Program-made: the position numbers and the translations under genes
In this document: positions 29,390 through 37,931 of the stretch, in pieces
Layout: each line of letters opens with the position of its first letter
Position numbering within the stretch: position 1 is the first letter of the stretch
Notes under the pieces: model-generated
What the model was told of the DNA's origin: nothing
The model's database searches: none
Seen by the model: the letters and a program-made list of their open reading frames with translations, nothing else
Assembly: GCA_964016885.1 (NCBI GenBank)
Contig: CAXHJY010000220.1
Span: 1 to 44,973 of the forward strand
Direction: 5' to 3'
From: Eledone cirrhosa
Lineage: Eukaryota
DNA: 44,973 nucleotides

Positions 29390-31568
29390 GGGGCAGGTGT
29401 TTGAAGGTGGACATTACACATACATGGGGGGGGGGCAGGTGTTTGAAGGTGGACATTACACATACATAGGGGGGCAGGGTGTTTGAAGGTGGACATTACA
29501 CATACATGGGGGGGGGCAAGGTGTTTGAAGGTGGACATTACACATACATGGGGGGGCAAGGTGTTTGAAGGTGGACATTACACATACATGGGGGGGCAAG
29601 GTGTTTGAAGGTGGACATTACACATACATAGGGGGGCAGGGTGTTTGAAGGTGGACATTACACATACATAGGGGGGCAGGGTGTTTGAAGGTGGACATTA
29701 CACATACATGGGGGGAGCAGGTGTTTGAAGGTGGACATTACACATACATAGGGGGGCAGGTGTTTGAAGGTGGACATTACACATACATGGGGGGGGCAAG
29801 GTGTTTGAAGGTGGACATTACACATACATAGGGGGGCAAGGTGTTTGAAGGTGGACATTACACATACATGGGGGGGGGCAGGTGTTTGAAGGTGGACATT
29901 ACACATACATAGGGGGGCAAGGTGTTTGAAGGTGGACATTACACATACATGGAGGGAGCAGGTGTTTGAAGGTGGACATTACACATACATGGGGGGAGCA
30001 GGTGTTTGAAGGTGGACATTACACATACATAGGGGGGCAGGTGTTTGAAGGTGGACATTACACATACATGGGGGGGGCAGGTGTTTGAAGGTGGACATTA
30101 CACATACATGGGGGGCAGGTGTTTGAAGGTGGACATTACACATACATGGGGGGGGCAAGGTGTTTGAAGGTGGACATTACACATACATAGGGGGGCAGGG
30201 TGTTTGAAGGTGGACATTACACATACATGGGGGGAGCAGGTGTTTGAAGGTGGACATTACACATACATGGGGGGAGCAGGTGTTTGAAGGTGGACATTAC
30301 ACATACATAGGGGGGCAGGGTGTTTGAAGGTGGACATTACACATACATGGGTGGGAGCAGGTGTTTGAAGGTGGACATTACACATACATAGGGGGGCAGG
30401 GTGTTTGAAGGTGGACATTACACATACATGGGGGGCAAGGTGTTTGAAGGTGGACATTACACATACATAGGGGGGCAGGGTGTTTGAAGGTGGACATTAC
30501 ACATACATAGGGGGGGGGGCAAGGTGTTTGAAGGTGGACATTACACATATATGGGGGGGGAAAGGTGTTTGAAGGTGGACATTACACATACATAGGGGGG
30601 GCAGGGTGTTTGAAGGTGGACATTACACATACATAGGGGGGCAGGGTGTTTGAAGGTGGACATTACACATACATGGGGGGGCGAGGTGTTTGAAGGTGGA
30701 CATTACACATACATAGGGGAGCAAGGTGTTGAAGGTGACATTACACATACATGGGGGGGGGGGGCAGGGTGTTTGAAGGTGGACATTACACATACATAGG
30801 GGGGGCAGGTGTTTGAAGGTGGACATTACACATACATGGGGGGGCAGGTGTTTGAAGGTGGACATTACACATACATAGGGGGGGGGCAAGGTGTTTGAAG
30901 GTGGGACATTACACATACATAGGGGAGCAGGGTGTTTGAAGGTGGACATTACACATACATAGGGGGGCAGGGTGTTTGAAGGTGGACATTACACATACAT
31001 AGGGGGGGGGGGCAAGGTGTTTGAAGGTGGACATTACACATACATAGGGGGGGGGCAAGGTGTTTGAAGGTGGGGCATTACACATACATAGGGGGGCAGG
31101 TGTTTGAAGGTGGACATTACACATACATGGGGGGAGCAGGTGTTTGAAGGTGGACATTACACATACATGGGGGGAGGCAAGGTGTTTGAAGGTGGACATT
31201 ACACATACATGGGGGGGCAGGTGTTTGAAGGTGGACATTACACATACATAGGGGGGGCAGGTGTTTGAATGTGGACATTACACATACATGGGGGGGCAGG
31301 TGTTTGAAGGTGGACATTACACATACATAGGGGGGCAAGGTGTTTGAAGGTGGACATTACACATACATAGGGGGGCAGGTGTTTGAAAGTGGACATTACA
31401 CATACATGGGGGGAGCAGGTGTTTGAAGGTGGACATTACACATACATGGGGGGAGCAGGTGTTTGAAGGTGGACATTACACATACATGGGGGGGGGGCAG
31501 GTGTTTGAAGGTGGACATTACACATACATAGGGGGGGGGGGCAGGTGTGGACATCACACACATACATA
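29390..31568. repeat. G-rich minisatellite, ~54 units of ~40 nt
   Basis: Nearly invariant core GGTGTTTGAAGGTGGACATTACACATACAT plus a variable (A)G-run and CA/CAA/CAG linker; hand count of about 54 units. Confidence 0.99.
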
Positions 31569-35478: not shown

Positions 35479-36565
35479 TATATGTTCTGAGAGCTTTTTT
35501 TTTTTTATTTATAAAACCAGCCCTGCCATCCAACAGGGTATACTGGGTACTTTTAATTGTTGCACCAGTACTGCAATTTTACAGGGTATACTGGGTGCTT
35601 GTTGTTGTGGCACCAGTACAGTACCCTACAGAATGGGCAGGTTGCTTTTTGTCATGGTACCAGCACAACAACCAGTTACAGGATTGACTGGGCCCTTTTT
35701 GTTGTTGTGGCAACAGCAGTGTGGGAGAGCAAGCAACATGTCATAGGGATGGCTTTGAAGAGAGTCAGTTGCTCTTGACAATAAATTGCAGAGCCTATCT
35801 GGCTTTCCATACATGTATTGGTTAGCAAATGTGAATCTGAGATGTGGTAGAGAGTGGAGTGTAACATATCATCATTGTTAAACATCCATTTTCCATGACC
35901 TTATGGGCCAGATGGGCTGTGATGTACTGAAACGAAGCCAGGCAGGTGACCACGGCTAGTTCATACATTTTTCTTATGGCATGACCTCCACAGCCGGCAA
36001 GATGCTCTTCTTAACCCCTATCAGAGTATTTTATCAGGGGATGAGGTGTGGGTGTGTCTGGCTTTCTATGTTGGATATGGAAAAGGTGGATGTGACTGTA
36101 TTTGTGTGTTGGTATGGGTTAAACTGGACTCGATTCTTTGGTTGTATTCTATCTATGCTTGTAGGTTCAAAGCCCAGTGGGAACAAAGCAAAAGGTCTTT
36201 CATTCCCACAGGATCATCTAAACAGGATATTCAGTCCTCATGACACCATTTAACAAAGATGGTCTTATAAGCAATGTTAGGAATTGTGTTTACACACACA
36301 GAACACACTAAACATACACAACACACAACACACTGTATGGGAGTCTGAGAGAGGAGGTGAGCAAATACATCAACAACATATGTATAATGATCTCAGTCTG
36401 TCAGGAATCAACATATTGAGGCTGTTTTAACCCCCCCCCCCTACTACCAAGGGACATCATCATCGTTTATATATATATATATCTAACAAAGGAATTGTGG
36501 TAAGGAACCAGATGGACCATAACACACCAGAGTACTCAATACTTAGGGTAGTAGAGTGGGAAATG

Positions 36566-36676
36566 GGAAAAAGTATGACCCCGACGGCAGAGCTCAAGCC
36601 GTTTCGACGGCTACTTCTGGACTGAAATAGCCGTCGAAACGGCTTGAGCTCTGCCGTCGGGGGTCATACTTTTTCC
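36566..36676. repeat. near-perfect palindrome (48/49-nt arms, 14-nt loop) built from the 3' half of an HHR
   Basis: GGAAAAAGTATGACCCCGACGGCAGAGCTCAAGCCGTTTCGACGGCTA and its reverse complement, differing by one base in the C/G run. Confidence 0.97.
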
Positions 36677-36682
36677 TATCTA

Positions 36683-36721
<39 letters not shown>

Positions 36722-36772: not shown

Positions 36773-36840
36773 ATTTTATCTGATGAGAACACAATTTTTG
36801 TCCCAGGATGATTTTGTATTCGAAATGCGCATAATAAAAT
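36773..36840 (+). ncRNA. minimal type I hammerhead ribozyme, intact core
   Basis: ATTTTAT CTGATGA GAACACAA...TTGTATTC GAAA TGCGCA TA ATAAAAT: perfect 7-bp stem I, 7/8 stem II, palindromic stem III, AUA site (cut after 36833). Confidence 0.88.
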
Positions 36841-37054: not shown

Positions 37055-37248
37055 ATATTAATTCAAAATATTAACAAAAATAGACATTCGTGTGATCAAG
37101 TATATTTTATTATACATATTTCATGCATCATCTTATTTTATCTGATGAGGACGTACAGTTGAAGATAGCTCAGTACCTCTGAAATATGTATAATAAAATA
37201 TACTTGATCACACAAATGTCTATTTTTGTTAATATTTTGAAATAATAT
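37055..37248. repeat. inverted repeat (~69-nt arms, ~56-nt spacer)
   Basis: 37055-37123 is the reverse complement of 37180-37248 with 2 mismatches. Confidence 0.95.
37135..37199 (+). ncRNA. minimal type I hammerhead ribozyme
   Basis: ATTTTAT CTGATGA GGACGTAC...GTACCTCT GAAA TATGTA TA ATAAAAT: same stem I as 36773, weaker stem II. Confidence 0.8.
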
Positions 37249-37340: not shown

Positions 37341-37402
37341 TATATATATATATATAATACAATATTAAATAAATGGAAAACTATATTTATAAAACCATAT
37401 TT

Positions 37403-37466
37403 ATTTCATTATATATATTTCGGGGATATCATATTAACAATATGCTATGCCCTCATCAGACAAAAT
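37403..37466 (-). ncRNA. minimal type I hammerhead ribozyme (left arm of the palindrome)
   Basis: Minus strand: ATTTTGT CTGATGA GGGCATAGCATA..TATGATATCCCC GAAA TATATA TA ATGAAAT. Confidence 0.78.
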
Positions 37467-37641
37467 ACAATATAAACAGTTATAGATAAATATATTCGAC
37501 ATACCGTAATAAACATCAACTTCATTTGAAGAGGTTTACGCTAGCAGTGAAAATACACTGCTAGCGTAAACCTCTTCAAATGAAGTTGATGTTTATTACG
37601 GTATGTCGAATATATTTATCTATAAAACTGTTTTATATTGT

Positions 37642-37705
37642 ATTTTGTCTGATGAAGGCATAGCATATTGTTAATATGATATCCCCAAAATATATATAAT
37701 GAAAT
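37642..37705 (+). ncRNA. mutated HHR copy (right arm), GAAA changed to AAAA
   Basis: Mirror of 37403-37466 with G-to-A at the catalytic G12 and at the first stem II base. Confidence 0.7.
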
Positions 37706-37931
37706 AAATATGGTTTTATAAATATAGTTTTCCATTTATTTAATATTGTAAATATACTCCAAATATTTGTCGAGTGCTTTTATATCAGTTATAAATATTT
37801 ACTAGTTGTAACCCAACAATTTTAAATATAACTTACATGTATATATATATATATATATATAATATATATATACACATATATATATATATATATACACATA
37901 TATATATATATATATATACACAGCGATATAT

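Follow-up and report, generated by a model that had tools for sequence, protein, structure and literature searches.

Positions 36486–36676 of the window, by which is meant the whole 44,973-nucleotide stretch of Eledone cirrhosa DNA analysed here (contig CAXHJY010000220.1), hold a complete short insertion of a Penelope-like element (PLE) that lies between two (TA)n runs. This copy and the other insertions of its family each probably arose from two cDNAs that were primed on opposite strands of the target, ran off the 5' end of the RNA and were joined tip to tip. The insertions of the family have a head-to-head architecture, a regular pairing of ends, a hotspot at which the arms meet and an extra base at that point. 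The original prediction, made from the sequence of the central palindrome, had read it as a 5'-inverted PLE insertion, which it is, and had explained the inversion by a cDNA that ended in the core of a hammerhead ribozyme, turned back on itself at stem II and served as primer for the second strand. The 5' inversion and the breakpoint hotspot were upheld, but stem II snap-back as their cause was not; the 5' end of the RNA, which in this family falls by chance inside loop II, accounts better for the turn.

The insertion in the window is asymmetric and consists of a 138-nt arm with its sense on the minus strand (36486–36623) and a 53-nt arm with its sense on the plus strand (36624–36676). With the first base after GTC numbered as +1 and negative positions lying upstream, the long arm runs from A(−41), at 36623, through the 3' half of the hammerhead (GAAA, stem III and GTC at 36583–36605, minus strand) to a long 3' end at +97. 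Its outer part (36486–36565, minus strand) is an 80-nt tail, which separates the short from the long 3' end and in full-length copies continues into the 5' region and the open reading frame (ORF) of the next unit. The short arm runs from G(−35) to the short 3' end and is without the tail. Its sequence, GTC GAAA CGGC-ttgagctct-GCCG TC GGGGGTC, is a genuine hammerhead 3' half (36636–36658, plus strand) with GAAA at 36636–36639, a 5-bp stem III (36639–36643 paired with 36653–36657) and the GUC site at 36656–36658, as had been predicted. The two arms meet in a blunt head-to-head junction (36617–36632), at which A(−41) of the long arm (36623) abuts G(−35) of the short arm (36624), and this type of tip recurs among copies of the family. 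The palindrome (36566–36676) is real, its arms being complementary save for one extra G in the G run of the right arm and one mismatch near the tip. The further 80-nt tail on the left, which makes the element asymmetric, and the minus-strand sense of the long arm go beyond what had been noticed originally. The flanking (TA)n target occupies 36467–36485 on the left and 36677–36718 on the right.

The central hairpin, GACGGCTA...TAGCCGTC, had been taken for stem II of the ribozyme; it is not, its 5' strand being the reverse complement of its 3' strand. Native copies have GTTCGGCTATTT as the 5' strand of stem II together with a 33-nt loop, unlike the hairpin in the window. CTGANGA was found upstream on neither strand of the window copy, as originally stated, and neither the 5' core nor the 5' strand of stem I was found in this copy, which therefore cannot form a ribozyme in cis. 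A search of the window against Rfam produced 382 matches; the 150 of them that were listed include no hammerhead and are mostly TA-repeat noise. The loop of stem III, GAGCTC, is self-complementary, and its predicted dimer is at −26.9 kcal/mol compared with −6.5 kcal/mol for the monomer (folded from copy L177). The long arm carries a GAAG variant, which is probably a later mutation that was enriched among the matches through the query used. The window copy itself is a dead by-product.

The family is abundant in the 3.0-Gb genome of this animal. A 29-mer from the 3' half of the hammerhead has 14,265 exact matches genome-wide, compared with none for a reversed control, which excludes chance. The palindromic forms number 13,928 with a spacer of at most 30 nt and 1,763 with a spacer of 31–60 nt, and in one subfamily 1,161 arms read through loop II. 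Among the best 30 matches to the window copy, palindromes with varied tips account for 28 (the window included) and two have native upstream sequence; when this upstream sequence served as the query, long copies were reached that bear an ORF with reverse transcriptase (RT) and GIY-YIG domains in the same sense. The parent is a partial-tandem PLE of approximately 3.1 kb (unit ~3,120 bp), the repeat of which holds a hammerhead of the U3-A8 type and, downstream of it, two 3' ends 80 nt apart. At least five subfamilies were observed, differing chiefly in the 3' strand of stem I near its bulge (L118, L195, L198, L102, L128, L183 and others).

The parent has the features of endonuclease-bearing PLEs, namely a single ORF with RT motifs (GGGLYRDD and MGATDSAE) and a downstream VIY..YIG in related copies, a partial tandem known as the pseudo-long terminal repeat (pLTR), an inverted 5' copy and a tail at one end only. 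ESM Atlas gave matches of 0.95–0.96, with RVT_1 and HTH_animal in part of the members; no Pfam family was found for two proteins, and a PDB sequence search gave one match, which was irrelevant (E 0.064). On its protein motifs the family can be placed provisionally in the Hydra clade of PLEs. RLRWR, with R for the K of RWK, occurs in 24/24 matches and VHSDKT in 25/27 (41 loci); the CxCx5C linker is present 13 times as CNCPDRSTC; CCHH is absent, with one cysteine between VIY and YIG; CxxC and CxH are found around the conserved E and N as CNLC..EE and CKH; and the target is (TA)n. Two descriptive traits of that clade are lacking, since the core reads TTGA-N-AA and not that of a canonical hammerhead, and the unit of ~3,120 bp exceeds the usual length of less than 3 kb. 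The Neptune clade was rejected, as there is no CCHH with two cysteines between GIY and YIG and no DKG, and the Hydra diagnostics fit instead. A non-LTR retrozyme, consisting of tandem monomers each with a complete hammerhead, does not agree with dispersed insertions that hold half a ribozyme. A miniature inverted-repeat transposable element (MITE) or other DNA transposon with terminal inverted repeats is likewise rejected, for the ends differ by the 80-nt tail, the tips vary and the sequence belongs to a retroelement.

Full-length members had been expected to carry CTGANGA, a point on which the original prediction was made to depend, and taken literally it fails there. Stem I is indeed present upstream, but the core is the U3-A8 variant instead of the canonical one. 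Among 87 distinct segments, a sample enriched for one subfamily, the core reads TTGACAA in 53, TTGAAAA in 15, TTGAGAA in four and TTGATAA in one; two have another sequence and 12 are without the core region. The variation of N is as expected, because it is the free position 7 of a U3-A8 core. The fold predicted for the parent is that of a type I hammerhead, a three-way junction with three stems and a conserved core with free N7, in which stem II has two parts, including a 9-bp helix, and loop II holds an upper hairpin. Self-cleavage would take place at GUC. By eye, arm ends are not over-represented at the cleavage site among 66 junctions, and ribozyme-cleaved RNA as the template was rejected on this lack of a visible pile-up.

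Breakpoints were mapped in a sample of 90 of the first 100 positional matches to the 29-mer; the last four places and six matches that were the partner arms of insertions included earlier were left out. With one pair counted once and two duplicates dropped, it comprised 88 insertions, all on one chromosome arm, and the anchored arms had to reach −31. The anchored arm ends between −31 and −52 in 75/88, between −53 and −80 in four and further upstream in nine, with the mode at −41/−40. A single base within loop II, A(−41), is where the turn lies, and the enrichment in the stem II/loop II region that the original prediction had called for is strong. A second arm was detected in 71 insertions and none in 17. 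Long plus short 3' ends were paired in 60 cases, long plus long in one and short plus short in one, nine pairs being unclassifiable, so that 60 of the 62 classifiable pairs join one long to one short 3' end. The arms do not overlap in 9/71 insertions, where one arm consists of tail only and the other of the ribozyme half. In 47 pairs the arms share non-majority (subfamily) bases 28 times, compared with 4.5 in permutations (maximum 13 of 5000), showing that both arms of an insertion come from the same source subfamily.

Long copies, in which the region is passed a second time, behave differently. At the best 30 ORF matches, to which this count refers, 13 loci reach −31 on the second pass, and all 13 go past −52 with none stopping (Fisher p ~1e-9 compared with the first pass). 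Most partner arms of long copies likewise read through, and the stop therefore tracks the RNA and not the fold. Contigs from short reads (three runs, their type unrecorded, of a single study that may have used the sample of the assembly itself) have loose ends at positions 1183/1184 of copy L177, which are A(−41) and −40, and at 1243 and 1323, which are the two 3' ends. Opposite-strand joints occur at the hotspot (L177 1178–1185), and the summed depth, which is not a copy number, makes an approximately six-fold step at the hotspot bin.

The DNA base preceding A(−41) is natively T, and at the junctions it is often G. There are 984 palindromes with 1–4 nt between two A(−41) ends; in a hand count of the 50 listed, 22 have a single C:G, 12 C..G, three C on one arm, 12 native A/T and one another sequence, and the order G..C was never seen among these 50. 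G precedes A(−41) in 54/100 cases counted by hand from the listing. Where the partner arm is short, the base is G in 35, T in 24, C in five and A in two (all 66 matches, hand count), G thus accounting for 35 of the 42 non-native cases, and the joins cluster at GA/GAG microhomology in the partner. Zero-loop tips such as CTCGAG are unusable as hairpin primers. Several RTs are known to add an extra C to the cDNA when they reach a cap, although a literature search returned no passage in support. Stalling at a lariat branch point (CTAAT at −48..−44) is a poor candidate for the origin of these ends, as the cDNA would then stop at −44 and an extra G at −42 would not be expected.

A second PLE family is represented in the window by a head-to-head insertion at 37359–37838, with the short arm on the minus strand, the long arm on the plus strand and a canonical CTGATGA core. 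This family has 462 exact matches and a CxCx5C linker in its ORF. Its arms turn near TTC|ACTG, approximately 90 nt upstream of the ribozyme core: 15/30 loci end at most 8 nt downstream of an initiator-like TCACT, and the other 15 read far and are mostly long plus short pairs. All 13 of the stopped loci with a detected partner arm combine a long and a short end. A TCACT initiator-like site has been noted in a rotifer pLTR (PMC3846280).

According to the mechanism proposed here, a capped Pol II transcript would start within the pLTR at A(−41). This putative start lies in an initiator-like TTAGTCC, which fits the initiator consensus YYANWYY. The two 3' ends (+17/+20 and +97) would represent two internal RT start sites, some 60 and 140 nt from the cap, both of which precede a TA able to pair with the target. 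A dimeric RT-endonuclease would nick both (TA)n strands and one cDNA would be primed at each site; each cDNA would then run off the end of the RNA, often adding C opposite the cap, and the cDNA ends would be joined via template jumping or via end joining with trimming and microhomology. A palindrome would result when both cDNAs reach the end, and a non-overlapping inversion when one stops early. Long tandem copies would derive from another pool of RNA without that 5' end, either read-through multimers or circles, and the start-site transcripts would lose their 3' priming sites through cleavage or termination. For a PLE protein that is a predicted dimer, cutting and extension of both strands and RT start at two internal sites flanking the tail have been reported (PMC11167929), and the Penelope promoter is internal, with initiator and downstream promoter elements (PMC2377424).

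Further observations concern the ends of individual cDNAs. Some tips (L079, L125, L193 and others) bear untemplated A/T runs of 10–20 nt or short re-copies of the cDNA end, which suggests stutter and re-priming of the RT at the end of the template. At positions 1144–1320 of the oriented copy L184, the second pass of a long cDNA stopped at −24, where it meets a short arm whose own end is at −40; this is the one long copy that fits a start-site transcript.

Several points weigh against the proposed mechanism. The start and the cap at −41 are deduced from DNA sequence. An RNA that starts at −41 should yield full-length cDNAs with their ends at that base, yet all 13 second-pass cDNAs go beyond −52, and a second template pool must therefore be assumed. 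The fates of the two arms are not always shared (L112, L138, L141 and L145), many arms keep native bases to −42..−46 (24/66 have T before A(−41)), and a few tips (e.g. C1:105515488) look as if the cDNA had folded back on the upper hairpin of loop II. As regards the extra G, the control at −42 is weak and only partly discriminating: it gives G in 13/100, and when templated joins of the AAA type are dropped the comparison becomes 54/86 with 13/30 (p = 0.09). The extra C could be an untemplated addition at any RNA end, capped or uncapped, and the extra G is weakly seen in the second PLE family, at two junctions that microhomology also explains.

Among the other explanations, the one that survives best, improbable as it is, retains the priming of two cDNAs (twin priming) and lets a protein or a structure in stem II/loop II, close to the initiation complex, set the boundary of the template, as in telomerase RNA. 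The stop does fall on the 3' strand of the upper hairpin predicted in loop II, the U run next to it shows A-run stutters (e.g. L079), and a roadblock bound to the initiating complex would spare the second pass. However, a lone extra G that depends on orientation and is confined to a single base is not predicted by such a roadblock, and the second PLE family has its stop at an initiator-like site that lies approximately 90 nt upstream of the ribozyme.

Somewhat less credible still is that one cDNA leaves the 5' end of the RNA, folds back on its last bases and primes the inverted arm. Self-priming has been proposed for PLE palindromes (PMC3846280), and snap-back after synthesis of a full-length cDNA is documented for R2 proteins (PMC11371274); furthermore, subfamily variants are common to both arms and some tips fit tiny hairpins such as CTAAATTAG. 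Yet the non-overlapping arms (9/71), as well as inverted arms with tail sequence that is missing from the other arm, are impossible to obtain by this route, and loops of zero or one base with C..G are not primers. Self-priming after run-off may be a minor route.

The snap-back on stem II envisaged by the original prediction has been largely refuted and retains only a slim chance. Breakpoints do cluster in the stem II/loop II region and the native stem II does have a 9-bp helix, but a cDNA turning there should keep the native 33-nt loop, which is lost: spacers of at most 30 nt outnumber those of 31–60 nt by 13,928 to 1,763, the longer ones listed are insertions or partial loops, and no clean case was seen in the 50 + 50 loci listed of the two classes. 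Snap-back should also act on the second pass of the ribozyme, where 0/13 stopped. It is unable to give the pairing of long with short ends or the non-overlapping arms, and the site at which the second family turns also speaks against it.

Slightly less likely again is the spread of a single palindromic, non-autonomous, MITE-like unit, the tip of which was later eroded by deletions of the centre. In its favour are the very high copy number, the recurrence of some tips and the known tendency of long palindromes to lose their centres; however, identical tip types occur in both the ATTT and the AATT subfamilies, solo and non-overlapping arms end at the same base, and deletion adds no specific C:G. 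An assembly or fold-back read artefact, which the original prediction had named as a danger and which the location of the window on an unplaced, microsatellite-rich 45-kb contig might favour, is practically out of the question, since thousands of copies with different flanks, tips and ends lie on chromosome-scale contigs and the short-read contigs repeat the ends and the opposite-strand joints at the level of the family.

The surroundings of the insertion are rich in related sequences. Two more minimal type I hammerhead motifs (CTGATGA...GAAA) were observed at 36773–36838 and 37134–37198, both on the plus strand, the former with a palindromic stem III, TGCGCA; they are probably the ends of other PLE families stacked in the same TA tract. 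Elsewhere in the genome, ORFs of other PLE families adjoin insertions at L062, L063, L065 and L066, a nested use of TA tracts. A tandem array with a unit of ~40 bp and at least 39 copies occupies 30005–31540 of the window.

The inverted structure of PLEs is already known. Evidence from junctions for twin priming with run-off at the RNA end appears to be new, although related models may exist in the supplements of PMC8557442 or in other papers; in a literature search that covered few subscription papers, twin priming or cap run-off was proposed for PLE inversions in no title or abstract found. How the tandem and inverted repeats of PLEs and their one-sided tail arise is listed as an open question in PMC8557442, and PMC11167929 describes the later steps of integration as unvalidated. 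Two short motifs of the window family were not found in searches of the supplement of PMC8557442.

More than 15,000 natural junctions argue against the published reading as self-priming. The run-off of two primed cDNAs predicts that a capped RNA starts at one base, that there is one RT start site for each DNA strand and that cDNA ends bear an extra C. It would explain the long-puzzling inverted ends of PLEs. If it holds, genome sequence by itself would suffice to map the promoters and RT start sites of PLEs, many of the short palindromic repeats found in TA-rich animal genomes could be reinterpreted as by-products of retrotransposition, and there would be a bearing on how a telomerase-related RT handles the end of its template. 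A wider proposal, possible though rather doubtful, is that twin priming is obligatory in every PLE insertion, with a dimer using the long and the short start sites on opposite strands. The inverted pLTR and the one-sided tail would then have their general origin in this process; transcripts with a cap would give "strong-stop" palindromes that record start and cap, and full-length tandems would come from an endless template, plausibly circles made by the hammerhead. Circles serving as the template of tandem copies would give the ribozymes of PLEs their missing function.

In twin priming of the L1 retrotransposon, each target strand primes a cDNA and an inversion results, as here. The arms of L1 copy non-overlapping parts and the second site varies, whereas in the present family both sites are fixed and the arms usually overlap. 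Minus-strand strong-stop DNA of retroviruses is likewise a short run-off cDNA primed near the 5' end of the RNA; in contrast to it, neither a tRNA primer nor LTR transfer is involved here.

The PLEs of the Hydra clade (Craig et al. 2021, PMC8557442) share with the family the C-terminal GIY-YIG, RW[R/K], DKT, the CxCx5C linker, the lack of the CCHH cysteine pair, CxxC and CxH, the (TA)n target and a hammerhead in the repeat, and differ from it in their canonical core and in a unit generally shorter than 3 kb, compared with U3-A8 and ~3.1 kb. The U3-A8 core covariation has already been reported in PLEs of Cercyon (Cervera and De la Pena 2014, PMC4209133), which also have close pairs of motifs on opposite strands; the present hammerhead differs from those in its full 5-bp stem III with a self-complementary loop and in its long, two-part stem II. 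The PAc Poseidon protein in vitro (Frangieh et al. 2024, PMC11167929) starts RT at two internal sites, one on either side of the tail, acts on both DNA strands by cutting and extending them, and uses an uncleaved RNA template, all in agreement with the scheme proposed here, but in the accessible part of that paper the two sites are not linked to opposite strands of one insertion and run-off palindromes are not described. Finally, a head-to-head inverted 5' copy, a tail at one end and palindromes at the junction are shared with the inverted pLTRs of PLEs described earlier (PMC8557442; PMC3846280), where the tails measure 30–40 nt compared with 80 nt here. Those palindromes were read as products of self-priming, possibly on an antisense template, in PMC3846280, and the mechanism is left open in PMC8557442, whereas in the present family the junctions, which number in the thousands, indicate two primed cDNAs that run off at a fixed base.
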